The notes: a model not told the origin generated them from the sequence alone. DNA of 16,992 bases from Bdellovibrionota bacterium FG-1 (GCA_051382295.1 JBBCAW010000075.1:1-16992), one strand, 5' to 3'; shown: positions 1,868 through 16,992, counted from the first letter of the stretch. Numbers and translations are program-made.

Positions 1868-1871
1868 AAAA

Positions 1872-3197
1872 ATGACTAACAGTGACACCGCACCAGGCAG
1901 CACTAGTGGTACCTTCTCTTTTCTTAAGGGTGGCGATAACGCCGTCGCACCAAGAGACGGGAAGGCGTTTGACTGGGAGCAGGCTGCACTCAAAGTCCGT
2001 GAGCAGCTCAGCGATGCGATGAACGCGAAGCATGTTGCGTTTCTTATCGGATCAGGGTGCTCGTCCCACGTTGTGAAAGGTCAGCAGCTCGGTGTTCCCA
2101 CGATGAAGCCGATTGCGGCCGACTTTACTGGCATGGTGGGTGCCAAGGGTGATTTGTATCACGTCACAGCCGAAGAAAATTCCATCCTCCTGAAACACCT
2201 GGGGTTAAATATTGCTGATCCGGAGTACGCCAATAACCTCGAACGCCTTATGGAAATTCTTTATAGTTTACAGTTCGTTCTTAAACGGAGTCACAACGAC
2301 GAGCTTAAAAAGGCCGCCAACGCTGTGCACACTGTGATCGAGAAAATTACTCGTTTCATCCTTCGTTCATGCACGAAAGGAAAATTTTCAGAAGGCGATG
2401 AGTCACTTTTGGGTCTCTATCAAGCCTTCTACCGCAAACTTGTCTATCGCGATCGTGCGTTGCCACGCCCTTGGGTTTTCTCTACGAATTACGATCTCTT
2501 CAATGAAACCGCAATGGATCGGCTTGGCATCCCATACTGCAATGGCTTTTCAGGGACCGTTGAACGCCGTTTCAATCCCGCCACATTTCGCTATTCGCTC
2601 GCGGAGCAGTTTGATATTTCCAGCCGCAAATGGACGGCGGTCGATAATTTTGTCTACCTGTGCAAGCTACACGGTTCAATCAACTGGATTGAAGAAAGCA
2701 AAGGTCTCTTCCCGATTCGCGAATTACAACAGGCTGCAACTGACGGTGGAAGTCGCGTAATGATTTATCCGACACCAGCAAAACAAAATGCCAGCCTCGG
2801 CTCACCATACTCCGATCTATTTCGAGAGTTCCAATCTCGAATCGTTCGAGAGCAGAGCGTTCTCTTCGCGCTTGGATACAGTTTTAGCGACGAACATCTC
2901 AATAATATTATTTTTCAGGCACTTACAGTGCCAACCTTTCGGCTAGTTGCTCTTTTGCCACCTGATGCTGACGGTGTACCTCTTCAACTTCGTAGTCTGG
3001 CTGATCCGCGAATCTGGATAATTGGTGGGGATGGTCCGTCAGAGGGGCGAAAAGCCCACTACTTTGATACCTTTATTGACAAGTTTATGCCCGAACCGCC
3101 TGGCGACAAAGTCGATACCGCCGTTGCAAAAGTACTCCAGACGCTAATTGGTGGCGCGAAAAGCCGGGAAGAGGAAGACGTGTCCGATGACCTCTGA
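1872..3197 (+). CDS. SIR2-like (sirtuin/NADase) domain protein of a Sir2-HerA anti-phage system
   Basis: Motifs FLIGSGCS, FSTNYD, LCKLHGSINW and LGYSFSDEHLN. ATG at 1872 is 4 nt after the mod stop and is preferred over the TTG at 1857. The 3' end overlaps the herA start. Confidence 0.9.
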   Translation: MTNSDTAPGSTSGTFSFLKGGDNAVAPRDGKAFDWEQAALKVREQLSDAMNAKHVAFLIGSGCSSHVVKGQQLGVPTMKPIAADFTGMVGAKGDLYHVTAEENSILLKHLGLNIADPEYANNLERLMEILYSLQFVLKRSHNDELKKAANAVHTVIEKITRFILRSCTKGKFSEGDESLLGLYQAFYRKLVYRDRALPRPWVFSTNYDLFNETAMDRLGIPYCNGFSGTVERRFNPATFRYSLAEQFDISSRKWTAVDNFVYLCKLHGSINWIEESKGLFPIRELQQAATDGGSRVMIYPTPAKQNASLGSPYSDLFREFQSRIVREQSVLFALGYSFSDEHLNNIIFQALTVPTFRLVALLPPDADGVPLQLRSLADPRIWIIGGDGPSEGRKAHYFDTFIDKFMPEPPGDKVDTAVAKVLQTLIGGAKSREEEDVSDDL

Positions 3198-5250
3198 TGA
3201 TCGTCGCAGAGCACTCGGCAAAGTTGTATCCGTCGCAGCCGACAGGTTCGTGGTGGAGCTTCATCGGGGAAATGATAATTTTACCGTAGTCGGATTTGAT
3301 GATGTTCACTATATCGCGCGTCTGGGGTCCTTCGTAGTCATTCCGGTTCAAGCTGAATACGTAGTTGCTGAAGTTGTTGGCCTGCGCGAGAAGGACCCCA
3401 CGGCAAACCGCCCCGCAAAAGACGACGGGAAAGAACTAGACAAGGCTTCCTCATCAAAGTTTCTTGATCTCGTGCCGGTAGGGATGCTGCCACAAAAGCG
3501 CGATGGTGAATTTCGATTTGGGGTGTCCACCTTCCCTTCATTATATGCTGACGCTCTCTATGCCTTGGACGCGGAACTCGACCGCATATTTGAAGTATCG
3601 GGCTGGGTAGAACCGGTGCCGCCTGGACTGGACGAATCAATTACTCGATATAGAGCTCTTACCATTGGGACATCTGTAGTCTTTCAGGGTTATGACTTGA
3701 AGGTTCGCGTTGATGAATTTTTTGGAGGGCACGCCGCCATTCTTGGCAATACTGGAAGCGGAAAGTCCTGCACTGTGGCCTCGGTACTTCAATCCCTTTT
3801 TGAAAAGCGGAACGAGCTTGTTGCGAGAGGAGCTACGTTTATCGTCCTCGATGTAAACGGGGAATATCGACGAGCTTTTACGAAATTGCCGGAATCAATC
3901 ACCCGTCATTATCTTCGAGTCGCCTCGAACCCCTATGAGGCAGCACCCCTCCCGGTGGATGCGCACGAAACAACGGGTACCTTCCGGCTTCCCCACTGGT
4001 TCATGTCTGTGGAAGAATGGGAACTGCTTCTGCGCGCTAGCGAGAGAACGCAACAACCAGTGCTGAGGACGGCACTTGGCCTCTCGACGCTATTCTCCAA
4101 AGGTAGAGATGGTCAGCTCGACAAAATTAAAAATCACATTCTTGCCTCGTGCATTCAGGGCATCCTGGCAAGCGACGCTGGCAGTCCAACAAAATCGGAT
4201 CGAATTACAGGTTTGCTTTCAACATTTTCGACTGCTGAGATCAGTTGCGACAAGCTAAGAGGTATGATCGCCATTAGTTACGGCCAAATGGCAGATGCGG
4301 AGGGCCTGGCCACGCTTTTACAAGGTCACATTCTAGAGAATATTTCTCTTCCGGGCTATTCACGCTGTGAATTCAAGTTCGAAGACATGGGAGCCGCGCT
4401 TGATTTGGCTCTCTGTTATGAGGAGGCGCACGGTAACCGGCAAATCAGAGATTATTGCGCACAGATGCTAACGCGTTTTAAGTGGATTAAAGAGCGTGAA
4501 GAATTTGCATTTCTTCGTGTTCCACCAAACAGCCTGAACAGTGAAGAACGTCATATTGATCTGTTTGTTGAGAATTTCCTGGGGCTGAAAAGGAAAGCCG
4601 ATAAACTTTACAAGACCAGCCAGATTATCATTTTAGACATGAACGAAGCCGACGATGAAGTTGTTGAAGTGGTGTCGGCAGTCATGGCAAGGCTCGTGTT
4701 TGATCGACTGCGCAAAGCCGAGCCGCGGAGCCGATTTCCGGTCAATTTCATTCTCGAAGAAGCTCATCGCTACGTCGCGGAGCACCCGTCTCGACATGCC
4801 ATTGATGCGGGCAGAATATTCGAACGTATCGCCAAGGAGGGACGCAAGTACGGACTATTTCTTATGCTTGCCTCGCAGCGTCCAAGTGAACTCTCTAAAA
4901 CCGTACTATCTCAGTGTTCCAATTTTGTAGTTCATCGCATTCAGAATCCTGATGATCTTGCACACATCCGTCAGATGACCCCATTTGTGTCCGAAAGTGT
5001 GATGAAGCGCCTTACCTCTTTGCCGAAGCAACATGCACTGATCTTCGGTAATGCGGTCAATCTAGCCACGACCTTCAAAGTGCGCGATGTCGATCCAAAA
5101 CCGAAGAGTGACGATGCCGCCATCCGCGACCTATGGTTTAGAAACAAAGATGAGGCGGTTGAACTCACTATCCCCGTGGAGAGGGTGGTCGTTGAAGAGG
5201 ACCCTTTCGGGAGCGCCATAACAGAGAACGATGATGATATTTCATTCTGA
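3187..5250 (+). CDS. herA: HerA/FtsK-superfamily ATPase (DUF87-type), partner of Sir2
   Basis: N-terminal beta-barrel-like region, Walker A GNTGSGKS, LDVNGEY, Walker B ILEEAHRY, KEGRKYG and SQRPSELSKTVLSQ. ATG at 3187 is preceded by GAGGAAG and overlaps the sir2 end by 11 nt. Confidence 0.9.
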   Translation: MTSDDRRRALGKVVSVAADRFVVELHRGNDNFTVVGFDDVHYIARLGSFVVIPVQAEYVVAEVVGLREKDPTANRPAKDDGKELDKASSSKFLDLVPVGMLPQKRDGEFRFGVSTFPSLYADALYALDAELDRIFEVSGWVEPVPPGLDESITRYRALTIGTSVVFQGYDLKVRVDEFFGGHAAILGNTGSGKSCTVASVLQSLFEKRNELVARGATFIVLDVNGEYRRAFTKLPESITRHYLRVASNPYEAAPLPVDAHETTGTFRLPHWFMSVEEWELLLRASERTQQPVLRTALGLSTLFSKGRDGQLDKIKNHILASCIQGILASDAGSPTKSDRITGLLSTFSTAEISCDKLRGMIAISYGQMADAEGLATLLQGHILENISLPGYSRCEFKFEDMGAALDLALCYEEAHGNRQIRDYCAQMLTRFKWIKEREEFAFLRVPPNSLNSEERHIDLFVENFLGLKRKADKLYKTSQIIILDMNEADDEVVEVVSAVMARLVFDRLRKAEPRSRFPVNFILEEAHRYVAEHPSRHAIDAGRIFERIAKEGRKYGLFLMLASQRPSELSKTVLSQCSNFVVHRIQNPDDLAHIRQMTPFVSESVMKRLTSLPKQHALIFGNAVNLATTFKVRDVDPKPKSDDAAIRDLWFRNKDEAVELTIPVERVVVEEDPFGSAITENDDDISF

Positions 5251-5353: not shown

Positions 5354-8300
5354 ATGAAACGCCTCAAAGATGGCTCTTTCCGCTTTTCTCCTTCTGACCT
5401 CACGACCTATCTTGAGAGCCCGTTCTCAGCCTGGATGGACCGCTGCGCGATAGAGTTCCCGGAACAGTTCAAGAGCGATCCAGATGACGAGTCAGCGAAG
5501 CTCATCCAAAAGAAGGGCAACGAGCACGAAGCACGCGTTCTTGCCTACCTAAAGACCAAGCATGGACACGTAGAGGTGATTCCATCTGAAGGCGATTTTG
5601 AATCCCGCCACAATGCCACACTCGCCGCGATGAGGACGGGACATGCGGTTATCTATCAGGGCGCTCTAAAACGCGAACCCTTCAGCGGATACGCGGATTT
5701 TCTGGTTAAGGTTGTAGGTCAGTCGAAGCTCGGCACCTACCACTATGAGGCATGGGACTCGAAGCTCGCGCGCAAGACCAAACCGTATTTTGTGATTCAG
5801 TTGCTTGCCTATTCTGAGATGCTCGATGAGATCCAAGGTGTGTTCCCCGCGACCATCACCGTCGTACTTGGAACAAATGAGCACAAAGTGCTCAAGACGT
5901 CGGATTTTCGAAACTACTACCAAAGCGTGAAACGCCGATATCTGGAGTTCAATCGTACTTTCAATCCAAAACAACAACCGATCCCAGAAAAGAGTGAAGA
6001 GATCAGGTCTTGGACCGCCGAGGCCAAGGCGCTAATCGCAAGGACAGATCATCTTTCGCAAGTCGCAGGCATTCGTGGGGCGCAGATCAGGAAATTGGAA
6101 GCGGCGGGCATTACATCCCTGGCAACACTTGCTTCGACCCTACTTGAGAAGATCCCCGACATGGAGAAGGGAACGCTCAAGAAACTCAAGCGGCAGGCGC
6201 GGCTTCAGGTCACATCCAAGGGGTTGCCTGTACCGAAATATGAAATCTTGGAACACGAGGAAAACGCGCGCGTCGGACTGCGCCTCCTACCGCAGCCGTC
6301 GATAAAAGACGTTTATTTTGACATGGAAGGGTACCCACTCTTTGAGGACAAGGGTTTAGAATATCTTTTTGGCGCGATCTACGAAGAAGCAGCCTCGGGC
6401 GGTAAGGAAGCAAGCCAGACTTTTATTGACTTCTGGGCACATGATCGAGCGCAGGAGAAACGTGCATTTGAGGCGTGGATTGACTGGGTTTACGCGCGCT
6501 TTAAGGCTGATCCGAAGATGCACATCTACCACTACGCGTCCTACGAAGTTACCGCGATGCGAAAGCTTTCAACGATGCACGCGACCCGCGAGACGGAGGT
6601 GGACGATTTTCTAAAGAAAGATGTCTTCGTCGACCTTTACCGGATCGTGACGCAAGGAATAGTGGTCGGTGAAGACTCTTACTCAATCAAGAAGATCGAA
6701 CATCTCTTTGGGCAAAAGCGCGATGGCGATGTCACCAACGCGGGTGATTCCATTGTGGAGTACGCAAACTATCTCGCCATGCCGGATGGCGCGGACTATA
6801 AAACGTCTCCGACACTCAAAAATATCCGCGACTATAACGAGGTGGACTGCGTATCGACTCTAAAACTCTGCAACTGGTTGAGAGCGGTACAAAAAGAATC
6901 ACAACTCGACTATCTGATGAAGACGCCCCAGCTCGAAGAGGAAATGGAGCGCGAAGAATCTCCCGCCACCCAGCTCGCCCAGAGTTTGTTGTCTGAACTG
7001 AACGGGAAAACGTCACTTACCGTCGATGAGACAGTCCAAAAACTCCTCGCTGAATTACTTGAGTTTCATCGTCGTGAGGCGAAACAATATTGGTGGAAAT
7101 ACTTTGACTGGATTAACTCGACGCACGACGAGCTGGTGGATCAGAGCGAGTGCATCGGTAATGTAAGGCGCACGGAAAAAGCACCATTGCCCGACAAACA
7201 GTCACTCATCGCCGAGTATCGCTTTGATCCTGGCCAAGACATTAAATTTGTTCCTGGGAGTGACTGCCAGGTCTACGCGGATCACGATAACGTCCTGGGG
7301 GCTGAGATACGCGATCTCGACACCGGTACCGGCCTTTTCACAGTGCGTGTGAGTAAGAAAAAATTGGAAAAAGTCGGTGGCTTTCCAGCCATTGCCTCCA
7401 TTTTACCCGGTGGTCCCATAAGCACTAAGGTGATGACAGAATCTCTTTTTTCCATCGTATCCAGATTCAAAGAAACGAAGCTGAGACATTCCATTCCCAA
7501 GGCCATTGCGGAGCTGTTGTACCGCACTCTGCCCCAAATTGACGGACACAAGGCTGGCGCTCCGTTGATTGCAGAGGGTGATCTGCCCCTCGAACGCACC
7601 ATCGATCTGATCAAGAGCATGAGCGAAACGACGATTTGCATCCAAGGTCCACCTGGCGCCGGAAAAACATATACTGGATCGCATGTGATTCACGCGCTTC
7701 TACAAGCTGGCCGAAGGGTCGGTGTCACGTCGAATTCTCACAAGGCAATTGAGAATCTTATGGGAGCCGTTTTGGATGTCGCGAAGAAAAATGGCTCTGA
7801 AATTACAGGATTTAAAAGTGGCGGTGAGCCGGAATTTCTAGAAAAGACCGGCCTCAAGAAGTTTGAAACCAAAGATATCGCAGCACTGATACCGGCACGT
7901 AATGGACATATATTGATTGGCGGCACCGCCTGGACATTCTCGCGGGAAGAGGCCTGCTCGGATGGAAGAGAAGTGTTGGATTATCTCTTTGTAGATGAGG
8001 CAGGGCAAGTCTCGCTCGCCAATCTCGTCGCCATATCACGCTCGACCAAGAACATTGTTCTCATGGGCGATCAGCGGCAGCTTGAGCAGCCAATTCAGGG
8101 TTCCCACCCCGGCGAGAGCGGTGAATCCTGCTTGAACTACCTGATCCAGGACCATGCAACCATTCCGGCGGAACTCGGCATTTTTTTAGGAACCACATTT
8201 CGAATGCGTCCGGACGTTTGCAAGTTTGTCTCTGATAATTTTTATGAATCGAGACTCGTGGCCGACGGGTCGACGCTCGAAACTGAACTTATACGTCATG

Positions 8301-8791
8301 CCTCATGCCAAGAAGTCGGAAAATCTGAGGGTATTTTATTTATTCCTGTTGAGCACGAGGACTGTTCCCAATCGAGCCGGGAAGAGGTGGCTACCATCAA
8401 CTCGGTGATTGGTGAACTCCTCAAGTCGCAAATCAAGGATGCGAACGGTACAAGGCCGCTTACCATGAGAGATATTCTGGTAGTGGCTCCCTACAACCTC
8501 CAAGTCAATCTCCTGAAGCAGACTCTTCCGAAGGGAATTGAAATCGGATCAGTGGACAAATTTCAGGGCAGAGAGGCTCCGGTTGTGATTTTGTCCATGT
8601 GCTCAAGCACGCTCGATGCCTCCCCTCGCGGAGTGGACTTTTTATTCAGCCCCAACCGGCTGAACGTGGCGCTCTCTCGCGCAAAGTGCCTGGCTATTGT
8701 CGTTGGCAATCCGGACTTGGCTGCGACAGACGGCACATCAATCGAGAAGATGAAAATGGTGAATTTATTTTGTGGGATTGTAAACTGCTGA
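5354..8791 (+). CDS. TM0106-family RecB-like nuclease fused to an RNase H-like domain and a UPF1/DNA2-like SF1 helicase
   Basis: N-terminal FSPSDL, nuclease motifs GYADFL / WDSK / QLLAY, HhH-like LSQVAGI, RNase H-like YFDMEG..YLFG..IYHY..YNEVDC, and helicase motifs IQGPPGAGKT, VDEAGQ, GDQRQL, APYNLQ, SVDKFQGRE, RLNVALSRAK. Confidence 0.88.
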   Translation: MKRLKDGSFRFSPSDLTTYLESPFSAWMDRCAIEFPEQFKSDPDDESAKLIQKKGNEHEARVLAYLKTKHGHVEVIPSEGDFESRHNATLAAMRTGHAVIYQGALKREPFSGYADFLVKVVGQSKLGTYHYEAWDSKLARKTKPYFVIQLLAYSEMLDEIQGVFPATITVVLGTNEHKVLKTSDFRNYYQSVKRRYLEFNRTFNPKQQPIPEKSEEIRSWTAEAKALIARTDHLSQVAGIRGAQIRKLEAAGITSLATLASTLLEKIPDMEKGTLKKLKRQARLQVTSKGLPVPKYEILEHEENARVGLRLLPQPSIKDVYFDMEGYPLFEDKGLEYLFGAIYEEAASGGKEASQTFIDFWAHDRAQEKRAFEAWIDWVYARFKADPKMHIYHYASYEVTAMRKLSTMHATRETEVDDFLKKDVFVDLYRIVTQGIVVGEDSYSIKKIEHLFGQKRDGDVTNAGDSIVEYANYLAMPDGADYKTSPTLKNIRDYNEVDCVSTLKLCNWLRAVQKESQLDYLMKTPQLEEEMEREESPATQLAQSLLSELNGKTSLTVDETVQKLLAELLEFHRREAKQYWWKYFDWINSTHDELVDQSECIGNVRRTEKAPLPDKQSLIAEYRFDPGQDIKFVPGSDCQVYADHDNVLGAEIRDLDTGTGLFTVRVSKKKLEKVGGFPAIASILPGGPISTKVMTESLFSIVSRFKETKLRHSIPKAIAELLYRTLPQIDGHKAGAPLIAEGDLPLERTIDLIKSMSETTICIQGPPGAGKTYTGSHVIHALLQAGRRVGVTSNSHKAIENLMGAVLDVAKKNGSEITGFKSGGEPEFLEKTGLKKFETKDIAALIPARNGHILIGGTAWTFSREEACSDGREVLDYLFVDEAGQVSLANLVAISRSTKNIVLMGDQRQLEQPIQGSHPGESGESCLNYLIQDHATIPAELGIFLGTTFRMRPDVCKFVSDNFYESRLVADGSTLETELIRHASCQEVGKSEGILFIPVEHEDCSQSSREEVATINSVIGELLKSQIKDANGTRPLTMRDILVVAPYNLQVNLLKQTLPKGIEIGSVDKFQGREAPVVILSMCSSTLDASPRGVDFLFSPNRLNVALSRAKCLAIVVGNPDLAATDGTSIEKMKMVNLFCGIVNC

Positions 8792-8872: not shown

Positions 8873-9292
8873 TTACTCGGCCTCGGCTCTCACCAGCGTT
8901 CCCTTAGCGAAACCCTGCGCCAGGAGGTTGCGAGCCCACGTCCGCGAAAAGCTCTGAAGGTCGCGCATCGCGCGCTTGGAAACGAGCCAGTTGCCACTCG
9001 CGGCCTGCTCTGCGGCTTTACAGTAGTGCCCCGTCGAGTGCTGGATCGCCACCGGGAGCCAGTCGGCGCCGCCGAGGTCGACGAACTCCATGTCGGGATC
9101 TGGGACCAGGTCGCCGTTCTGCTCGTAGTAGTGAGTGACCGTGATTTGCTTGTCGTGCTTCTCGATCGAAAGAGGCATGAATCCCTCGCTAGCGATCTTC
9201 ACCGCGTAGTGTTCATTCTGGCGGAAGGTTTCCAGCAGGCCGTGGGTGGTCAGGATTTTCTCGATCGCGGACTTCATCGTGGTTCTCGTCAT
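8873..9292 (-). CDS. DUF6908-like hypothetical protein (139 aa)
   Basis: Start at ATG 9292 after a strong RBS (AAAGGAG). The GC-rich 52-aa extension in the ORF track is probably non-coding. The motif MPLSIE...THYYEQNGDLVPDPDMEF resembles DUF6908 proteins of mobile elements. Confidence 0.65.
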   Translation of the reverse strand: MTRTTMKSAIEKILTTHGLLETFRQNEHYAVKIASEGFMPLSIEKHDKQITVTHYYEQNGDLVPDPDMEFVDLGGADWLPVAIQHSTGHYCKAAEQAASGNWLVSKRAMRDLQSFSRTWARNLLAQGFAKGTLVRAEAE

Positions 9293-9319
9293 GGCTATCT
9301 CCTTTGTGTGTGAGGGCCG

Positions 9320-9616
9320 GGGGTCGTCCTGGCCCTTCTCGCAAACAGCAGGAAGGGCCAGGCACGACACCAGGGCGCGCGAAGGCCGGAGCCCGGCGCC
9401 GCATCCCGCAGGGGCATGGGACATGACAGCTCCGCTGGCGGGGCACATGCAGCGAAGCCGGATTTAACTCCGGCCGTAGCGCGCACGTCGCCCCGAAACA
9501 CAAAGGGGACGCCAAAATAGGAATCGCGGCAGCCGCGATCGAGAATTCCGTGACCTCTCCGGCAAACGCCCCGCCGCCGAAAATTAACGCATCGCGCACG
9601 TTGAAATCGTGTACGA
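9320..9616. other. Cluster of stem-loops in the intergenic region / 5' leader of the DUF6908-like gene
   Basis: GTCGT-CCTGGCCCTTC (9323-38) pairs with GAAGGGCCAGG-C-ACGAC (9352-68). Other stems: imperfect 9401-9450, GCCGGA-N6-TCCGGC 9457-74, 9486-9511, ATCGCGGC-A-GCCGCGAT 9523-39 and imperfect 9594-9616. Confidence 0.55.
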
Positions 9617-9664
9617 AATTCCGCCAAACTGATGAGCAACGCAACGGTTACGCACCACACCGAA

Positions 9665-9718
9665 TGAGACTATAGTCTCACAACTCACAGAGTCATCAGA
9701 TCCGCGAGTCTCACTCGC
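9665..9718. promoter_or_regulatory. Putative transcription-factor (enhancer-binding protein) sites upstream of the operon
   Basis: Perfect 16-bp palindrome TGAGACTATAGTCTCA (9665-9680). An additional GTCTCA half-site lies at 9708-9713, within the inverted repeat GCGAGT-CTC-ACTCGC (9704-9718). Confidence 0.5.
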
Positions 9719-9817
9719 TGACGACGGTAAACTTTATTATTACCGACAGTTGACTTGCATTGCTGCCCGTTAGATAGATGGGCCAATTGGGGTGAGTAGT
9801 TTCACAGAGGGGGTTTT

Positions 9818-10822
9818 GTGGAGAGGCAACTTTCAAGCGGGCGAACTTTTTTACAAAATGCGCGAGGCGTTCGCGTCTATCTGCTGCCGCGCTCCGGCTT
9901 CGCACTCGCGTTGCTGGCGAATCTGATTTGGGGCACGTCGTTCTTGGCCTCGAAGGTGACGCTCTCAGTCTGGGGTCCCTTCACGGCGTCGGCCCTTCGT
10001 TTCGCGATCGCGATCGTCGGCATGATCGTGGTGCTTCCGGCGCTGGGCCTTCCGATCCAGATCCCCCACTCGCGAACGGCCTGGTGGAAGGTGTTCCTCA
10101 TCGGCCTTTCTGGGTTCGGCCTGCTTTACCCGCTCCAGCTCGGCGGCATGACGTTCATCCCATCCTCGCTTTCGGCGGCGATTATGCTCAGCGCACCGCT
10201 TTTCGTCCTGGTTTTCACGGCAGGCTTTCTAGGCGAAGCGCTGCCGACGCGGAAGATCTTCGCAATTGGCATCGGGATTGTCGGCGGAACAATTCTGGTC
10301 TCTCCGGGCACTTTTGCTGTCGGGAATTGGTCCGCCGTGGCGGTGCCGCAGCTTTTGAAAGGATTTCTGCTCACGCTGGGCGCATCGTTGAGTTTAGCGG
10401 TGTCGGTGATTATCACCCGCTCCGTCACCAAGGACATTGACTCCCGGAGCCTCACTTTCTGGTCCATGTGCATCGGCGAGGCGCTCCTGCTCCCGTTCGC
10501 GCTCGCCGAAAATCACAGCGCTCTCACCCGGCCCGCGCTGGGGATGGGAATCGCGGCCCTCGTGTTTTTGGCGCTGTTTTGCTCGGTATTCGCGTTCCTC
10601 ATCTGGAACCGCGCGCTTGCAGTGGCATCACCCCAGGAGATCGCCTCCACGATGCACGTCAAAACGCCGGTCGCGGTGCTGCTTGGAATCGCGGTGGCCG
10701 GTGAACCGCTGACGGTTTCAATCGCGGCCGGAACGATCCTCGTTTCTTTTGCCGTATGGCTTTCGCAATCGCAGCCCAAGCCCGCCGCCGTGCTCATGCA
10801 CCCCAAAGAGGCAACACTGTGA
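9818..10822 (+). CDS. EamA/DMT-family (drug/metabolite) transporter
   Basis: About 10 hydrophobic segments, IWGTSFLASK...PFTASALRF, SAAIML..PLFV..LGE.L..RK and a repeated second half (FLIWNRAL...GEPLT). GTG start after AGAGGGGG. Confidence 0.9.
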   Translation: MERQLSSGRTFLQNARGVRVYLLPRSGFALALLANLIWGTSFLASKVTLSVWGPFTASALRFAIAIVGMIVVLPALGLPIQIPHSRTAWWKVFLIGLSGFGLLYPLQLGGMTFIPSSLSAAIMLSAPLFVLVFTAGFLGEALPTRKIFAIGIGIVGGTILVSPGTFAVGNWSAVAVPQLLKGFLLTLGASLSLAVSVIITRSVTKDIDSRSLTFWSMCIGEALLLPFALAENHSALTRPALGMGIAALVFLALFCSVFAFLIWNRALAVASPQEIASTMHVKTPVAVLLGIAVAGEPLTVSIAAGTILVSFAVWLSQSQPKPAAVLMHPKEATL

Positions 10823-11559
10823 ACGCATATCGCGCCTTTGAACCCGACCTCATTGTCGAAGCCACCTCAGTTTGTGATCGGCAGTGCTCGGGCTGCTACG
10901 CGCCCAATGTGATTTCGCGCGAAAACCCGCTTAAACTGTTGGCGGATCGACCGGACCTTTTTCTCGCGCCAGCGCGCCTTGAAGAAGCGCTCAGGACGTT
11001 GTCATCTTCACCGGACATGACCTTGCAGACGATTGGCATTCGTGGGGGCGAGCCCACGCGCCACCCGGCAATCGCTGAGATTCTTCGCGGCTTGAAGCGG
11101 CACTCAACAGCAGCACTCTTCCTCGAAACGCACGGGCGCTGGATCATGGATAAATGTGGTGATGAATGTGGTGAGCGCGCTGCCCTGCTTGCGGTGCTAC
11201 TGGAAACCGGAACCACCGTCAAATTGTCGTTTGATCGGATGCACGGACTTTCAGCGGGCGCACTCCAGATTATCACTCGCACTTTGGCTGCTCACGGGAT
11301 TCAATTCTGCATCGCGATCACCGAACCCGACGACGCGAGTTTTACCACTGCTCGCGAGTCTTGCGCGTGGATCGCGGATGATCGCATTATTTTTCAGAGG
11401 AAGGCCGACGCGAAGGATAGCCTTGTGCGGCCAAAGTACGCGGTCATTCGGACCGACGGACGTATTTTTAGCGAAGTCTCGACGCGTCCTGAGTTTAAGA
11501 CCGTTGGCACCATCGCACCATTATCATTTTCCGCTATTTCGACAGGAGCCTGTTCATGA
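10819..11559 (+). CDS. Radical SAM superfamily protein (short, 246 aa, no SPASM/twitch domain seen)
   Basis: CxxxCxxC motif CDRQCSGC followed by Y, GGE motif IRGGEPTRHP, LETHG and LSFDRMH. GTG at 10819 follows RBS AAAGAGG and overlaps the EamA stop (GTGA). Confidence 0.85.
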   Translation: MNAYRAFEPDLIVEATSVCDRQCSGCYAPNVISRENPLKLLADRPDLFLAPARLEEALRTLSSSPDMTLQTIGIRGGEPTRHPAIAEILRGLKRHSTAALFLETHGRWIMDKCGDECGERAALLAVLLETGTTVKLSFDRMHGLSAGALQIITRTLAAHGIQFCIAITEPDDASFTTARESCAWIADDRIIFQRKADAKDSLVRPKYAVIRTDGRIFSEVSTRPEFKTVGTIAPLSFSAISTGACS

Positions 11560-12737
11560 AGCGATTGCTTGAAATACTGGGCGCGGGCATTTTTATGCTG
11601 GCGATGGCGCCCGCTTCTTTCGGCTCTGGCGGCGCCATAAAGTCAGTACCCATTGGCCTGGCCTCAAATTTCTCAGAACCCAGCCCCAGTTCATCCAACC
11701 CCTATGGTGATTATTTCCGAAGTGGTGTGGGCCTGGCGCTCAGCGATTCCGACTCCCGGTTGACCCGGCGCGGGCTCAAGATCGAGCTACAAGAATTCGA
11801 CTACGGGAACACTCAAATCCGCGCCCTGGACGCCGCGAAGAAAGCAGCAGCCTCTACGGTGATTGGCGTTCTTGGCTATAATTTGTCCTCCAACGCGCTT
11901 CTCGCCGCGCCCGTGCATCAAGAAGCAAAACTGCCCATGCTGACGCCGAGCGCGTCGGCTGATCGGCTTGGACGGATGGGACCTTTCGTTCATTCCGCCA
12001 GCTTTGACAACAGCTTCATGGGGCGCTCCTTGGCCCGAGTTGCGAGCGAACGACTCCACGCCAAAAGCGTCGCCATAGTAGTCGCCGTTGACTGCGCCTA
12101 CTGCCAGGACCTGGCGCGCGCCTTTGAAGAGAAATTCCGCGCCCTCGGCGGTTCGGTGCCAGTACGGTCTGAAGTTCTTGAAGGTGATACGGATTTTTCC
12201 CAAACGATTACCGCTCTCAAGAAAGCGGACTTCGATGTTGTTCTTGTGCCCAACCAGGGCTTCAGCCCACCGAGAATCATCGCCTCACTCCTCAAGGCGG
12301 GAATTCACAAACCTTGTCTGGGTGGCGATGGCTGGGGCGACGCCGGAAGCGACTTCTTCGCGCTCCTCGATAACCAAGACCTCAAGGGCTTTTCAGTTTC
12401 CCACTGGCATCCCGATGTTGCGCGCCCTCGCTCAAAGCGATTTGTAAAAGCCTTTGCCGCGCGATTCGGAAAGCAGCCCAACGACACGGCCGTTCTCGCC
12501 TACGATGCAACCCTTCTAATGGTGGAGGCGATCCTTTCCGCGAAAGAGCTGACGCGGCAAGGACTGGAAAACTCGCTCAGCGCAATCCATCATTTTGAGG
12601 GAGTGACCGGAGATTTTAGTTTTCGCAGCGGGGCCGCGCCCGCCAAGAGTCTCGTTCTTCTGACCGCTGATAATGAAAAGAAGAATTTCAAGCTCGCGGG
12701 AACAATCTCGCCCCAAGGGAAGGAGACATTACGATGA
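11556..12737 (+). CDS. Periplasmic binding protein, type I (LivJ/LivK branched-chain amino acid-like fold)
   Basis: Signal peptide-like N-terminus, PMLTPSAS, GDTDFSQTITALK, LGGDGW, AVLAYDA..L..AI and FEGVTGDFSF. ATGA overlap with the radical SAM gene. Confidence 0.85.
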   Translation: MKRLLEILGAGIFMLAMAPASFGSGGAIKSVPIGLASNFSEPSPSSSNPYGDYFRSGVGLALSDSDSRLTRRGLKIELQEFDYGNTQIRALDAAKKAAASTVIGVLGYNLSSNALLAAPVHQEAKLPMLTPSASADRLGRMGPFVHSASFDNSFMGRSLARVASERLHAKSVAIVVAVDCAYCQDLARAFEEKFRALGGSVPVRSEVLEGDTDFSQTITALKKADFDVVLVPNQGFSPPRIIASLLKAGIHKPCLGGDGWGDAGSDFFALLDNQDLKGFSVSHWHPDVARPRSKRFVKAFAARFGKQPNDTAVLAYDATLLMVEAILSAKELTRQGLENSLSAIHHFEGVTGDFSFRSGAAPAKSLVLLTADNEKKNFKLAGTISPQGKETLR

Positions 12738-12847
12738 TTCACTACAAACGCATCACGCTACGCGCTCTTGCAGCTCGGGACCGCGATACCTGCATCATGG
12801 GCCTCCTGCGCCCGGATTTTGAGCAAAAAAGGGCCAAGCCGGTATGA
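12734..12847 (+). CDS. Unannotated 37-aa ORF MIHYKRITLRALAARDRDTCIMGLLRPDFEQKRAKPV; probable internally deleted RimJ/RimL-type GNAT remnant
   Basis: Strong RBS AAGGAGA. It has ATGA overlaps with both the upstream SBP stop (12735-37) and the downstream kinase start (12844). The halves resemble the RimJ/L N-terminus (RIxLRAL..xD) and C-terminus (D..IMGLLRx[DE][FW]). Confidence 0.7.
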   Translation: MIHYKRITLRALAARDRDTCIMGLLRPDFEQKRAKPV

Positions 12848-14331
12848 GCGCATTCTGGAAACTATCCGCTCATGAGGTCACGCTGCGGACAACGCTCAAT
12901 CGGGTCCTTCTCCTTACGCTTGCCTTGGTGACCATTGCGACGATTGGCATTCTTTTCGGCTACGCGGAGATCAAGCAGACCACCGCGATTCGCGAACGCA
13001 TCGACGAACTCGCCAAGGGTACGCCCGCTCAAATAGCGGCGGTTTTGCCCTCATTCCTTGTGCCTGAGCAACGCTTGGGCATGGCAATTATGCTGGAACG
13101 ATTCAAAGCGTCCGATGGCTTGGACGACATCACGGTTCTGCTCCCCGGCAGCCCCTTGCCCGCCGCGCTCTCGGCCTGCACTTTGGGTTCGGCGCCGAGT
13201 GATTGCGTGGAAGTGGGTGGTAAGCGAATCGCCTACGTTGCCCCGGTTCGCGAGGGCGACCATACTTTTGGCTACCTCGTAAAAACGAAAATCTACTCTA
13301 ACCCATTCGCAGGCGATGTGATTCTGCACATGATCGAGTCCGCATCAGTGGTGCTGGTCTTGGTGTTCCTGGGCCTTTTTCTGTTTTCATCACGTCTTAC
13401 GGCCCGAATGATCCCGGATGAGCTTTCCAATCTCGCGACCTGGGTCGAGTCGGTCCTCTCGGATCAAACCTCGGCCAAAGCGCCTCGACTCCGGTTTAAG
13501 GAACTGAATGATCTTGCCGCTCAAATCGCCCAGATTCTGGAGCGCCACGAAAGAGCGCGCGACCAGGCGGTGGTTGGGCAGTTGACCAGCGGGATCATGC
13601 ACGACATCCGAACCCCCATGGCTCCAATTGTTGCAGCTCACCTGCTCGTAGCAGAGCAGACCGAAGGCTCAGAAAAGCGCCTCAAGCGCCTCGAAAACCT
13701 GTTCAGAGCGTGCACGACCAATCTCCCTATTATCGGCAATCTGATTGAATCGGTACTGGATGGAAGCCGCGAGATCAGCGTTGAGTCTCAAGCGCTGGAT
13801 CTTAGAGAAACAATCCGACAGGCGGTCCAGCTCCTTTCGCCCCGCGCACTCAATCGCAGCGTCGAATTAAACGTACACCTCGGTGATACGCCGATTGTGG
13901 TGCCACATGACCCTAACCAGATGACCCGCGTTTTCGCGAACGTCATCCGAAATAGCATTGACGCGATTGTTGATGCCCGCAGCACGGATTCCGAACACCA
14001 GGCGCAGTTCAAGATTACCGTGGACGCCTGTGCAGACGGCGGGGCGCATGTCCGAATGGAAGATTCCGGCCTCGGACTTCCAGCAGATCCGGAAAAGGTG
14101 TTTCGAGTATTCCGCAGTTCCAAACCCCGTGGCAGCGGTCTTGGGCTGATGATTTCGCGTAAGATCGTTGAGGCTCACGGAGGAAAGATGACGGCGGGAC
14201 GCTCCGATTGCCTGGCTGGAGCCCGTTTCGACGTAAACATACCGGCGGCAGCAGGCAGCCTGACGCCCGGTTTAACTCGTGAACTTAAGCAGGACCAAAA
14301 GTCAGAGCGCGCCATGGAGACGACTACATGA
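12844..14331 (+). CDS. Membrane sensor histidine kinase
   Basis: Two TM segments flanking an extracytoplasmic domain, H-box GIMHDIRTPM, N-box FANVIRNSIDAI, G1 EDSGLG, F-box VFRVF and G2 GSGLGLMIS. Confidence 0.92.
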   Translation: MSAFWKLSAHEVTLRTTLNRVLLLTLALVTIATIGILFGYAEIKQTTAIRERIDELAKGTPAQIAAVLPSFLVPEQRLGMAIMLERFKASDGLDDITVLLPGSPLPAALSACTLGSAPSDCVEVGGKRIAYVAPVREGDHTFGYLVKTKIYSNPFAGDVILHMIESASVVLVLVFLGLFLFSSRLTARMIPDELSNLATWVESVLSDQTSAKAPRLRFKELNDLAAQIAQILERHERARDQAVVGQLTSGIMHDIRTPMAPIVAAHLLVAEQTEGSEKRLKRLENLFRACTTNLPIIGNLIESVLDGSREISVESQALDLRETIRQAVQLLSPRALNRSVELNVHLGDTPIVVPHDPNQMTRVFANVIRNSIDAIVDARSTDSEHQAQFKITVDACADGGAHVRMEDSGLGLPADPEKVFRVFRSSKPRGSGLGLMISRKIVEAHGGKMTAGRSDCLAGARFDVNIPAAAGSLTPGLTRELKQDQKSERAMETTT

Positions 14332-15746
14332 TCGAGCAACCAAGAGCGTTACCCAAAATCCTTGTGATCGACGACGACCCGTCGTGGTTGGAGCAGATTC
14401 CCCTCATCCTTGAGGATGAGTGTCTGGTTGAAGGCTATGCCACGATCGACCAAGGGCTTCATGCCATTGCCATGGACTATTACGATGTCCTTCTCCTGGA
14501 TCTCAACTTCGATGGTGAGAGCCGCACCGGGCTCGATGTTTTCAAGAAAATCCAGGCGCTTGACCGGGGCGTGGACGTGATTGTGGTAAGCGCCGAAACA
14601 ATCCCGAGTCGCCTGATCGAGGTATTCAACGCGGGGGTAAGCCATTTTATTCCGAAGCCAGCCACCCCAAACGCCATCCGTGTGGCCGTGAAAAAGACGC
14701 TGGAACAGCGGGAGATTCGTTCGCGCGCGGTGAACCGCGAAATTCAAGGCAGCGAAGGACCAACACTTGTGGGGCGCTCAGCGGCAACGCAACGGTTGCG
14801 CTCTGACATTTGTCGCGTCGTTTCGGCCAAGGTCAACAATGTGCTGATCCTGGGTGAAACGGGAACGGGCAAAGAAGTAGTCGCCCGCATGATCGCCGGA
14901 CGAGCAGATCGTTCCCCGCGTTTTGTGGCCGTTCACTGTGGCGCCATCAACGACGGCCTGGCCGAATCTGAACTCTTTGGCCATGTGAAGGGCGCGTTTA
15001 CCGGCGCCGACGTGCCTCGTGTCGGGGCATTTGAAGCGGCGGGCGGCGGTTACGTTTTTTTGGATGAAATCGGTGAGATGCCGATGGCCCAGCAAGCCAA
15101 GCTTCTGCGCGTGCTTCAGGAGCGAAAAGTTCAGCGGGTGGGCTCAAATGAAGAGCGTCCCTGTAATTTTCGGCTGATCGCCGCAACCAATATTAACCTT
15201 GAGCAAGCGGTAGCAGAGAAAAGATTTCGGGAAGACCTCTACTATCGAATCGCGGGCGAGAAAATCGTGATCACGCCCTTGCGCGAACGAATCGAAGATA
15301 TCCCGGAATTGGTTTACGATACGTTGGCGAAGAAGCCAGCCACCCGCAAAATCAAACTGACCAGCGGCGCAATGGCGCTCCTCCAATCCCACACCTGGGC
15401 GGGCAACGTGCGAGAACTCATCCACATCGTTGAGCGCCTTGCGATTCGTTGCCCCGACAACGTGATCCGCGAGAAGGATGTTTGCCTCGTAGTGCCAGAG
15501 GTCACGTCGATTTTCAATTCGCGCTCCACCAAAGTGCTCGTGGGCCGTTATGGTGCCCAGCTCATCGCAGGCGAGCGTAAGCGCTTTGAGAAGGCCATCA
15601 ACGAAGCCTACGGAAACCGAGAAAAGGCTGCAAAAATCCTCGGCATCTCGCGGCCCACCTTCTTTCGTAAAGCGAAGGAGTTTGGGCTGGTCAGAGAGCG
15701 GATCAAGGATATTGAGCCGCCAGAGGGGCCGGAGGTAACCCAATGA
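14328..15746 (+). CDS. Sigma54-dependent response regulator (NtrC family: REC-AAA+-Fis HTH)
   Basis: Receiver ILVIDDD / LLLDL / FIPKP, Walker [24 protein letters not shown], Walker [17 protein letters not shown], and [18 protein letters not shown]. Confidence 0.95.
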
Positions 15747-16408
15747 TCGGAGGAATGAGTTCCTGTATGCTTCTACTTATGGCAGTTGCGACCAATAAGT
15801 CAGTGATAAAGATCGCACCCCAGCAGCTGACATTGAAGGACGGCGCAAAGGTAAACGTCCGCGCAGCGACCAAGAAGGATGTTGGCGCCGTAACCGATCT
15901 CATCCATCAAGCCTATGGCTACTGGATGGATGAATTTGGCCTAAAACTGACTCCGCAAACCCAGCCCACTGATAAGACCGAAAAACACCTCGTCGGCTTA
16001 GGTTTTGTAGCAACGGATGAATCTGGAAAAGTTGTCGCCACGTTTAGTGTGGACGAAGTAAAGATCACCGAGACTCCAGAGAATATCGACGTAAAGTTCC
16101 GCTTTGCTCGCGACGGAGTGTCCTACACGAAGGCGGAGAACCTCAATACGCCGGTCAATGGGCGCTATTTGGAATTTAAGAAATTTGCGACCGATCCAAG
16201 CCTGGGCAGACAAGGGCTCGGAAAGCAGCTTTATCTCATGGCTGAAAACTACGCCCGCGCCAACGGCTTTGATGGCGTGGAGCTGGAAACAGTCTACGAG
16301 TGCCGCTGGCTCTATGAATGGTACGTGGAGATGGGCTTTCAGGTCATTGGTAAGCACCGGTATCCGAACTCGAAGTTAGACACTTTGATTCTGGTGAAGA
16401 GGTTTTAG
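15743..16408 (+). CDS. GNAT-family N-acetyltransferase
   Basis: VRAATKKD N-terminal strand/helix, acetyl-CoA motif A (FATDPSLGRQGLGKQLY) and C-terminal LYEWYVEMGFQVIG. ATGA overlap with the regulator; the start could alternatively be a downstream Met. Confidence 0.85.
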   Translation: MIGGMSSCMLLLMAVATNKSVIKIAPQQLTLKDGAKVNVRAATKKDVGAVTDLIHQAYGYWMDEFGLKLTPQTQPTDKTEKHLVGLGFVATDESGKVVATFSVDEVKITETPENIDVKFRFARDGVSYTKAENLNTPVNGRYLEFKKFATDPSLGRQGLGKQLYLMAENYARANGFDGVELETVYECRWLYEWYVEMGFQVIGKHRYPNSKLDTLILVKRF

Positions 16409-16411
16409 AGA

Positions 16412-16858
16412 ATGGCTGACGTGAAAACTCGAAAAATGAAACTCAAGAAGGACTTTACGCCCCCGAGCTTCGATGACGGCGACGAGTTTTTTCCAAACGG
16501 CATTTTTGAATTCAACATAACGAAGCTGCTTTCGTTTATCGGTTCTCATCCGAGCGCGTTTCCAGTCGAAAACGTCGAGGTCTCCTCGTTGGTTCGCGGA
16601 GTGCCCGATCACCTGGACGAAAACACTGTTCAACAGGCCAATTTTAGGAACCCAATCGTCCTGGCTGAAATCAGCCCTGGCCGGTTCAACGTGGTCGATG
16701 GCAACCACCGACTTGAAAAGGCGCGACGCGAAGGCGCGGTGAAGATTCCCGCATACAGGGTGGCTGCCGAGCAGCATGTGTCGTTCATGAAGACCGTCAA
16801 GGGATATCGGGCCTACATCGGGTATTGGAATACGAAAGTCAGAGAACTCAATGGTTGA
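16412..16858 (+). CDS. Stand-alone ParB/Sulfiredoxin N-terminal-like domain protein
   Basis: NPIVLAEISPGRFNVVDGNHRLEKAR matches the ParB/Srx PI.V...DG.HR motif. No HTH or dimerisation domain follows. The start could be 16412 or 16436. Confidence 0.7.
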   Translation: MADVKTRKMKLKKDFTPPSFDDGDEFFPNGIFEFNITKLLSFIGSHPSAFPVENVEVSSLVRGVPDHLDENTVQQANFRNPIVLAEISPGRFNVVDGNHRLEKARREGAVKIPAYRVAAEQHVSFMKTVKGYRAYIGYWNTKVRELNG

Positions 16859-16947
16859 GTACCTAAGCGGCCGCCCAACAATAACTTAACAGAACTAGGT
16901 CTTAAAACATCGATTCAGCGAGACACAGAGCAGCCGTTCGCTCCTTC

Positions 16948-16973
16948 AAATATGTCAACTTAATGGCATATTT
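16948..16973. promoter_or_regulatory. Operator-like inverted repeat
   Basis: AAATATGTCA-ACTTAA-TGGCATATTT, 10-bp arms with one mismatch, in AT-rich intergenic DNA. Confidence 0.35.
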
Positions 16974-16992
16974 TGGCCACGACGCAATATAG

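Follow-up and report, generated by a model that had tools for sequence, protein, structure and literature searches.

The 16,992-nt stretch of Bdellovibrionota bacterium FG-1 analysed here (the window; GCA_051382295.1 JBBCAW010000075.1) is the entire contig C75 of a 4.44-Mb genome in 158 contigs, and the contig is broken at both ends by copies of an insertion sequence (IS). Positions 9818 to 16408 hold a tightly overlapped signalling cassette whose core encodes an EamA transporter, a radical SAM enzyme, a periplasmic binding protein, a histidine kinase and a sigma54-type activator, and which appears to be tied to the transfer functions of a conjugative element. The cassette and its promoter region are laid out as follows.

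9665..9680, strand not applicable: perfect palindrome TGAGAC-N4-GTCTCA, predicted operator of the activator, conserved upstream of EamA
9708..9713, + strand: operator half-site GTCTCA, seen in the sequence
9750..9755, + strand: TTGACT, predicted sigma70-type -35 box of the cassette promoter, its TTGAC conserved after the palindrome
9818..10822, + strand: EamA/DMT transporter, 334 aa, predicted exporter (PF00892, E 1e-34)
10819..11559, + strand: minimal radical SAM enzyme, 246 aa, of an uncharacterised family, predicted signal synthase from its motifs and fold
11556..12737, + strand: LivJ-type (type I) periplasmic binding protein, 393 aa, predicted signal receptor (PF13458, E 2e-40)
12734..12847, + strand: in-frame deletion remnant of a GNAT gene, 37 codons, junction near 12777/12778, both 4-bp overlaps kept
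12844..14331, + strand: sensor histidine kinase, 495 aa (HisKA/HATPase), two membrane helices flanking one small periplasmic PAS/Cache-like domain
14328..15746, + strand: sigma54-type enhancer-binding response regulator, 472 aa, with D58, GAFTGA and a Fis-type helix-turn-helix (HTH_8)
15743..16408, + strand: accessory GNAT, 221 aa, family F10 (PF00583)

A first-pass annotation of the window described seven open reading frames (ORFs) joined by six (G/A)TGA overlaps of 4 bp at 10819, 11556, 12734, 12844, 14328 and 15743, with no ABC permease or ATPase in the window. All of this is correct, and its families agree with the scans (EamA, Peripla_BP_6, HisKA/HATPase, Response_reg/Sigma54_activat/HTH_8, Acetyltransf_1, and radical SAM, the last with a weak Pfam score of 21.9 bits, below the cut-off of 29.5). 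By a crude count, a -4 overlap is possible in at most 485 of the 1897 long-ORF pairs that lie close together in this genome, so that a single 4-bp overlap is ordinary and six consecutive ones are not; the overlap between the radical SAM and binding-protein genes is -4 in 42 of 48 loci. The idea of a seven-gene unit stands in that every ORF is real, and falls in that the conserved core has five genes: EamA, radical SAM, binding protein, kinase and activator.

The two remaining ORFs are both of GNAT origin. The 37-codon ORF, counted at first as an operon gene of its own, is a pseudogene that retains ~14 codons from the start and ~22 from the end of a ~180-aa RimL/SpeG-type GNAT (PF13302), a gene that in relatives sits intact between the binding protein and the kinase. 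Against the intact L028 gene its DNA matches the first 44 and the last 70 nt, and the 447 nt between them are missing in frame. The junction is no assembly error, because contigs of three other runs (~91-95% alike) span it without a gap, and as a GNAT remnant the ORF is ruled out as a RiPP (ribosomally synthesized and post-translationally modified peptide) precursor or small regulator. Are the GNATs part of signal synthesis, as was first supposed? Thirty long loci include 13 with a RimL-type enzyme, 3 with the window's terminal type, 3 with a third type, 1 with two types and 10 with none of the three families within the stretch examined, which rules out a GNAT as a required synthetic step and makes these genes accessory, not core. 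The terminal F10 type occurs in 3 of 30 other long loci, never beside an intact RimL-type gene, and adjoins the radical SAM or EamA gene in three further loci; the window has lost the RimL-type GNAT and carries the terminal one.

Alignment scans with the radical SAM protein gave 23 genome and 63 metagenome loci, a single-protein scan of genome contigs having given nothing. Removal of seven distant matches (L027, L085-L090) and five near-duplicates left 74 loci; four metagenome records are covered by 10-kb flanks only, and conservation counts take the loci whose contig is long enough for each gene. Co-occurrence of the genes in other genomes, on which the first-pass annotation had made its reading depend, is widespread, with dozens of mostly Bdellovibrionota loci. 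EamA lies upstream of the radical SAM gene in 49 of 55 loci and the binding protein downstream of it in 58 of 64, the kinase follows the binding protein in all 46, and the activator follows the kinase in 33 of 37. Among 401 genomes of the phylum, 12 have the radical SAM gene and 11 the cognate binding protein (E<1e-140), all 11 together with the enzyme; searches of 72,556 plasmids and of viral contigs returned no match to the enzyme. The first three proteins of the core are further tied together by fusions, seven EamA-radical SAM (among representatives) and five radical SAM-binding protein, some of which may be errors, because a single indel at a 4-bp overlap can create a fusion. One EamA-radical SAM fusion could be located, in genome G358, with the palindrome, the promoter motif described below and tra genes. 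Distance correlations are 0.83-0.90 among binding protein, kinase and activator and 0.45-0.55 for the radical SAM enzyme, all confounded by kinship, and a quick tree of the enzyme is too poorly resolved for a co-evolution test. Two divergent copies of the cassette are found within one assembled genome on two occasions (L008 and L013; L010 and L021).

What does the activator control? The first-pass annotation likely missed the output, which, judging from gene neighbourhoods and operator positions, would be the transfer operons of a conjugative element. Of 26 loci with 4.5 kb or more of sequence downstream of the cassette, 19 have genes for a type IV secretion system (T4SS) or a coupling protein there (20 when L024 is read further), the families being TrbC/VirB2, VirB4/TraC and TrbL/VirB6, or a VirD4-TraU fusion with a T2SSE ATPase. 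In genomes G063, G064 and G065 the operon continues to a terminal tyrosine integrase, with VirB9/VirB10 and coupling-protein matches in those scanned, and cassette, T4SS, coupling-protein-like ORF and integrase share a single contig; the relaxase assignment is weak in these genomes, with a MobC/Replic-Relax match below cut-off for one. Upstream of cassettes are excisionase-like genes and restriction or defence cargo. By its gene content, then, the cassette resides on integrative conjugative elements of Bdellovibrionota.

The link to transfer is drawn more closely by the operators. In 26 of 31 loci the transfer operon is preceded by a sigma54-like TGGCAC...TTGCA motif with arrays of the half-site 45-150 bp further upstream, and such arrays stand before transfer operons of two different T4SS types. 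Four promoters of this kind, their arrays nearly identical, occur in the FG-1 genome (the host). Two are on contig C35, before an ssb-VirD4/TraU-ATPase operon and a TraE/TrbI/TraC operon, one is on C58, before TraG-relaxase-excisionase-integrase, and one is on C14, before mobC-relaxase-integrase. Three half-sites accompany 4 of 60 motif-like host sites, against at least three in 6 of 34,106 tiles. Across the 401 genomes the half-site with the short motif turns up in 10 of the 11 that have a full cassette and in 17 of the 390 that do not, one cassette genome failing by a single base; with a canonical spacer as control, 2 of the 11 score. The activator retains GAFTGA and D58, its recognition helix is kept across the family, and no other host regulator matches it. 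The host has one RpoN, and the arrays fall at distances in keeping with the about 80-150 bp of typical activator sites. From these sequence features it is likely that the activator controls the transfer promoters, and probable that those promoters use sigma54.

In 14 loci (L012, L013, L019, L021, L035, L044, L048, L050, L051, L055, L065, L069, L072 and L074) a further GTCTCA half-site lies at exactly +40 bp from the start of the motif, immediately ahead of the first transfer gene's ribosome-binding site. The C14 unit (4012, - strand) shares the operator array and the short motif, and its contig is devoid of T4SS genes. This unit may be a mobilisable satellite, served by the activator in trans.

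In the host the element is split over C75, C35 and C58, and the join between the cassette and the first transfer operon has to be made across the right end of the window.

16851..16866, + strand: PLD-family nuclease gene, first five codons, IS-interrupted, identified by fit to a homologue's N-terminus
16867..16992, strand not applicable: IS end, right contig break, common to four other contig ends

Contig C35 most likely continues the window past the IS, with the first transfer operon following the nuclease gene, since the IS target sites match (TAA/TTA) and the five codons agree with the N-terminal end of P0371, a protein that is the 58% homologue of the truncated nuclease gene on C35. The rival partner, C71, ends inside a different gene. 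In the sister element of genome G066, cassette, ssb and VirD4-TraU are on one contig, and a tra operon 65-86% identical to that of C35 is on another.

The same operator words stand before the cassette itself. Upstream of EamA the palindrome is perfect in 27 of 39 loci and has at most one mismatch in 34 of 39, a count that leaves out seven too-short loci and six others (five duplicates and the Elusimicrobia locus L023); the background is 7 of 1568 tiles and 0 of 780 shuffles, and the host genome has two perfect copies. Three of the five palindrome-free loci have a longer kinase without a cognate activator, and in the other two the contig ends before the site. All 34 palindrome loci have TTGAC after the palindrome, and in 26 of the 34 a half-site-like word, absent from the window, lies within the spacer of that box. 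Because the TTGAC box follows the palindrome, with a half-site-like word in its spacer, we suggest that the activator autorepresses a sigma70 promoter here. No sigma54 motif was found upstream of EamA, and the idea of a sigma54 promoter there as the activator's target was dropped in view of the sigma70-type -35 box and the operators; a generic sigma70 scan did not call the window's cassette promoter. For the same reason the reporter on 9660-9817 proposed in the first-pass annotation would probably read autoregulation, not activated output.

On the receptor side of the cassette, the binding protein belongs to the HAAT family, with 4gnr and 3td9 as its closest structures, and 54 sequences share the invariant motifs GY..S, CAYC, G.DGWG and HW. 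Its pocket motifs align with those of amino-acid-binding HAAT proteins: S111, S132, S/T134, Y182, D258 and G259 are invariant or nearly so, at positions which we take to be those that bind the alpha-amino acid group in LivJ, and the equivalent of Y202 is mostly Gln. The simplest reading of this conservation would be that the family binds one conserved amino-acid-like ligand. The kinase has invariant H253, C112 and C121 and matches CitA (Z 12.1) and WalK (Z 11.5) in fold. The binding protein would contact the kinase and set its state.

The putative synthase is a bare radical SAM core. CxxxCxxC, a GGE motif and a partial TIM barrel are all present, placing it by sequence and model in the radical SAM superfamily. 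In 55 sequences the invariants are C19/C23/C26 (CxxxCxxC), GGEP, ETHG, SFDxMH, TE and Q193, with only three invariant cysteines and no auxiliary cluster. The residue ahead of the third cysteine, usually aromatic in radical SAM motifs, is here Gly. The structure model (pLDDT 92.5) shows the radical-SAM fold as a ~225-residue open partial barrel. The family is compact, with 151 proteins in a word-indexed search and 99 representatives at E<=1e-30 followed by a sharp fall-off; the ESM Atlas gave generic radical SAM clusters only. EpeE/YydG, viperin, GDGT-MAS, SuiB and SkfB share the core fold (Z 13.0-13.8, rmsd 3.1-7.7 over 182-207 residues), and EpeE also shares an S.D..H stretch (E 2e-6). The cassette enzyme differs from all of them in its identity of 14-18% and in having neither SPASM/twitch cysteines nor an RRE (RiPP recognition element), and it falls far below the NCBIfam cut-offs. 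The C-terminal auxiliary-cluster cysteines and precursor peptide of EpeE/YydG and of SPASM/twitch RiPP maturases are both missing, as far as the neighbourhood clustering covers precursors, that is, ORFs of at least 70 aa.

In five loci (L011, titled Pyrinomonadaceae, and L063, L067, L071 and L073) the radical SAM gene is followed by one for a ~525-aa methyltransferase-domain protein, without EamA or binding protein; in L073 an ABC transporter (PF04392) and an aminotransferase come next.

Related cassettes bear on what enzyme and transporter do. In three sister loci, L161 (7425-12827) and L162 (7235-12602) in genome G267 and L160 (6891-12559) in G055, a kynurenine-3-monooxygenase-like enzyme (E 5e-47) and a LysE exporter accompany a related binding protein and kinase. 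Enzyme and exporter are thus swapped together, and the incoming enzyme's family acts on an amino acid. The two G267 copies add a short-chain dehydrogenase/reductase and a sigma54 activator and lie beside a tra operon (2 of 3 sister cassettes). L160 adjoins glutamate-mutase-like, desaturase-like, ATP-grasp and EamA genes. The Elusimicrobia locus L023 (3688-14383) runs GNAT-EamA-radical SAM-binding protein-long kinase, with no cognate activator, and continues with nitroreductase, serine-acetyltransferase-like and GTP cyclohydrolase II genes.

How might these parts work together? The radical SAM enzyme would make an amino-acid-like signal, which EamA would export and the LivJ-type binding protein would bind, setting the kinase. 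The activator would then bind the TGAGAC/GTCTCA arrays and turn on the conjugation, relaxase and integrase operons, and repress its own cassette promoter; the optional GNATs might acetylate the signal, to quench or vary it. In the transfer-switch part alone we have high confidence. The whole circuit, with a self-made signal that is exported and sensed through binding protein and kinase, we hold to be somewhat better than an even proposition. The first-pass annotation's make-export-sense scheme is favoured by the gene fusions and by the sister cassettes with a kynurenine-monooxygenase-like enzyme and LysE; what has to be given up is the GNATs' place in its core. Does the signal stimulate transfer? 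An inhibitory signal meaning 'carriers already present', with a LuxPQ-LuxO-like logic, seems about as likely as a stimulatory one.

Several observations weigh against this circuit. One concerns the transfer promoters: spacing at sigma54 promoters is generally strict, and a shorter spacer inactivates them. The TGGCAC and TTGC boxes are otherwise near-invariant, and the motif reads GG-N9-GC in 22 loci, GG-N8-GC in 4 and GG-N10-GC in 0 of 31 loci, in every case 1-2 bp shorter than canonical; the consensus is given as GG-N10-GC in PMC6296734. The host has 22 canonical intergenic sigma54 sites, among them the ones that belong to the homologous tra operons of C28 and C63, and a search of the host for a second sigma54 gene to account for the short spacer found none. 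The link from the window to a transfer operon spans the IS contig break, and 3 of the 26 long loci (L038, L040, L059) have neither transfer genes nor the motif in the stretch examined. Many loci are close kin in the tree, so the locus counts overstate independence. Four loci have a longer kinase without the activator, the radical SAM gene occurs without EamA or binding protein in L011, L025, L063, L067, L071 and L073, and orphan binding protein-kinase pairs exist in two genomes (L158, L163). The five-way tie in the fold search favours no single reaction for the enzyme. The window's own binding protein deviates from its family at L110, G235, F236 and C254, and for that reason may have drifted or be decaying. 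Predicted autorepression differs from the positive feedback typical of quorum sensing. Finally, 6 of 17 motif-positive genomes that have no radical SAM gene hold a close activator orthologue. In the five examined (L212-L216, from G044, G108, G309, G346 and G300) the orthologue (54-57%) is encoded with a ~127-aa Lipocalin_5 protein, a distant binding protein and a kinase, with no radical SAM enzyme or EamA; the perfect palindrome lies upstream in 4 of 5 and the short motif with 5-7 half-sites in 3 of 5 stretches. Since these genomes run a close activator orthologue without enzyme or exporter, the circuit itself does not depend on either.

The Lipocalin_5 variant, the orphan pairs and the radical SAM genes without a sensor together indicate that activator, operator and transfer promoter stay constant and that the inputs are modular. 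Modular inputs fit signal dialects, and they fit the sensing of outside cues too. One may ask, then, whether the cassette controls transfer in response to a prey-, host- or habitat-derived amino-acid-like compound, with EamA, the radical SAM enzyme and the GNAT shaping that response by importing, converting or detoxifying the compound. We consider this unlikely, though several observations speak for it. The Lipocalin_5 variant uses the same activator and operators without enzyme or exporter, binding protein and kinase also occur as orphan pairs, the RimL-type GNAT has below-cut-off matches to SpeG, AAC(6') and ArsN1 models, negative autoregulation as predicted here suits a homeostatic circuit, and AioXSR, the closest known architecture, senses an external compound (PMC7533571). 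Yet enzyme and transporter are swapped jointly, and the replacement transporter is a LysE-family exporter; both genes belong to the operon that is predicted to be autorepressed, whereas a detoxifying output would be expected under the activated promoter; and the cognate binding protein is never found without the enzyme (11 of 11 genomes).

It is improbable, in our estimate, that the radical SAM enzyme instead modifies a protein or peptide of the circuit, or works as an Fe-S/oxygen sensor within a membrane complex that also holds EamA, binding protein and kinase. As a rule, small radical SAM barrels take large substrates, and this one is an open partial barrel without auxiliary cluster; its top sequence and fold matches include the peptide enzymes EpeE, SkfB and SuiB, there are fusions of radical SAM enzyme, membrane segment and binding protein, and the binding protein carries the invariant CAYC. 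However, CAYC is retained in the sister binding proteins of cassettes that have no radical SAM enzyme, the enzyme also occurs with a methyltransferase and no binding protein, the clustering of ORFs of at least 70 aa yielded no conserved small precursor, and the sister enzyme is a small-molecule monooxygenase.

Less probable still is that the cassette is passenger cargo, the activator having other targets and its closeness to transfer genes being incidental. The non-canonical motif spacing would agree with this, as would the three long loci and the four long-kinase loci without transfer genes or motif; against it, the operator arrays recur before each of the four host transfer operons, before operons of two T4SS types, and far above the tile background. 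Databases name the binding protein as part of a branched-chain amino acid ABC importer, and its HAAT membership would allow this. That it serves such an importer, with the other subunits encoded elsewhere, we dismiss as largely refuted: tblastn with a LivH/LivM pair from a relative found no match in the host genome or in 79 loci (L005-L084 without L027), an absence that for the host stops short of proof because the genome is 97.7% complete, each of the three PF02653 permeases of the host comes with a sugar- or nucleoside-type binding protein of its own, and the phylum's housekeeping LivJ forms a separate group (E ~1e-55 versus 1e-170) with its own livHMGF.

The signalling circuit proposed for FG-1 may also be one member of something larger. 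Other transfer regions of the host carry signalling cassettes of their own, on C19 (3845-9759), C28 (34402-42117), C140 (5529-11049) and C143 (7786-9113). That on C19 has a peptide-type binding protein, kinase, sigma54 activator, hydrolase and methyltransferase; that on C28 an activator, methyltransferase, YdcZ exporter, second methyltransferase-like ORF and kinase; and that on C140 an activator, a metallo-beta-lactamase-fold protein, an Oxidored_molyb-like protein and a kinase. C28 and C63 have canonical sigma54 spacing, and C19 short spacing with a different upstream repeat. We offer as a tentative extension, less likely right than wrong, that there is a whole unrecognised signalling class on Bdellovibrionota conjugative elements, in which swappable 'dialect' cassettes (radical SAM with EamA; kynurenine-monooxygenase-like enzyme with LysE; methyltransferases with a YdcZ-type exporter; hydrolase and methyltransferase with a peptide-binding protein; a lipocalin-like protein) feed a kinase and sigma54 activator. 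The window cassette would then make the first radical-SAM-derived autoinducer and fire shortened -24/-12 spacer promoters that are closed to host activators, and a mobilisable satellite in the same genome would eavesdrop on it.

How does the cassette compare with known systems? The first-pass annotation drew on the Vibrio AI-2 pathway, LuxP-LuxQ-LuxU-LuxO, which likewise has a binding protein, a kinase and a sigma54 activator, and in which LuxO represses its own sigma70 promoter. LuxP is of the sugar type, LuxQ is a hybrid kinase with tandem PAS domains relaying through LuxU, the signal is LuxS-derived and the outputs are small RNAs. A sigma54-dependent activator is common to both; the cassette differs in its HAAT-type binding protein (PF13458), single PAS domain, lack of relay and of LuxS, and predicted mobile-element output. 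LuxP is absent from the 19 and 16 PDB sequence matches of the binding protein. The 495-aa kinase has no receiver domain, the cassette has no Hpt gene, and the kinase domain is loosely alike to LuxQ in fold (Z 8.8, rank 17). The activator is not a LuxO orthologue, as the NF041946 LuxO model gives 244 bits against a cut-off of 800.

Closer in wiring is AioXSR, in which a binding protein, a membrane kinase and a sigma54-family activator are encoded together and drive a separate operon from an RpoN promoter, as we propose here; AioX is a receptor for external As(III), and what the system switches on is arsenite oxidase (aioBA; PMC7533571), whereas the cassette has a LivJ-type binding protein, an enzyme and transporter in the operon, and conjugation as its predicted output. 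Closer in purpose is TraI1/TraR of ICEMlSymR7A, where signalling is element-encoded and boxes stand at the synthase promoter and upstream of genes leading to excision and transfer, just as, on sequence evidence, TGAGAC/GTCTCA boxes stand at the signalling operon and before transfer genes here; that system (PMC8789080) has an acyl-homoserine lactone (AHL) synthase, a cytoplasmic LuxR receptor, positive feedback and an FseA cascade, all unlike the cassette. None of the 14 window proteins has an AHL synthase or LuxR-family match in Pfam or NCBIfam, a scan that covered this contig of the element alone. On this comparison the cassette resembles TraI1/TraR in purpose and AioXSR in wiring without belonging to either. 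Rap/Phr of pLS20 and ICEBs1, the enterococcal pheromones and arbitrium (in part after PMC7641744) also let an element time transfer by its own extracellular signal; they differ in using peptide signals, cytoplasmic RRNPP readers and Gram-positive hosts, with no kinase or sigma54.

The known cases of signal-controlled transfer come from AHL and peptide systems, and the cassette has none of their parts; it likely represents a quorum-like control of conjugation whose components bear no relation to those of known systems. Were the circuit true as proposed, it would bring new signal chemistry from an uncharacterised radical SAM family, a new receptor route for conjugation control that runs from a LivJ-type protein through a kinase to a sigma54 activator, and a sigma54-like promoter whose spacing should be inactive by textbook rules. 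A 2025 review of plasmid mobility names quorum sensing five times and 'sigma' or 'two-component' never (PMC12282955). The analysis also describes conjugative elements of a phylum without such an account in the literature searched; that search, of a library with few subscription papers, found no description of the cassette, of sigma54-run conjugation in the phylum, or of a radical-SAM autoinducer synthase. The proposed circuit is directly testable: its receptor, operator and target promoters have been named, as have its natural variants, and all are of a size that allows reconstruction in a laboratory strain.

The remainder of the window lies to either side of the cassette, and a search of the whole of it against Rfam gave no match.

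1-127: IS end, left contig break
383..8791, + strand: cargo of DNA-methyltransferase fragment, Sir2-like and HerA pair and TM0106-type nuclease-helicase, from family scans
8873..9448, - strand: DUF6908 gene (PF21849), divergent, element-associated, at the same position in L007, L008 and L030
16412..16858, + strand: small ParB/Srx-like protein, 148 aa, accessory, with weak SbnI/SerK matches only (E ~1e-3)

The methyltransferase ORF (383-1867) resembles a C-terminal fragment. The Sir2-like and HerA genes (1857-5250) resemble an anti-phage system, antiphage models matching only below their cut-offs; this pair and the TM0106-type nuclease-helicase (5354-8791) are typical element cargo. The ParB/Srx-like gene adjoins the cassette only in L005. 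Among transfer regions, a coupling protein of ~1050 aa that fuses a VirD4/TrwB-type protein to TraU, followed by a T2SSE-family ATPase, is encoded in L007 (16370-19603) and on host contigs C35, C28, C63 and C19. Upstream of two other VirB-type operons, on C115 near 46770 (- strand) and on C24 near 2030 (+ strand), TGGCAC and TTGCA lie 15 nt apart (GG-N20-GC, read by eye), a spacing one helical turn beyond the canonical.

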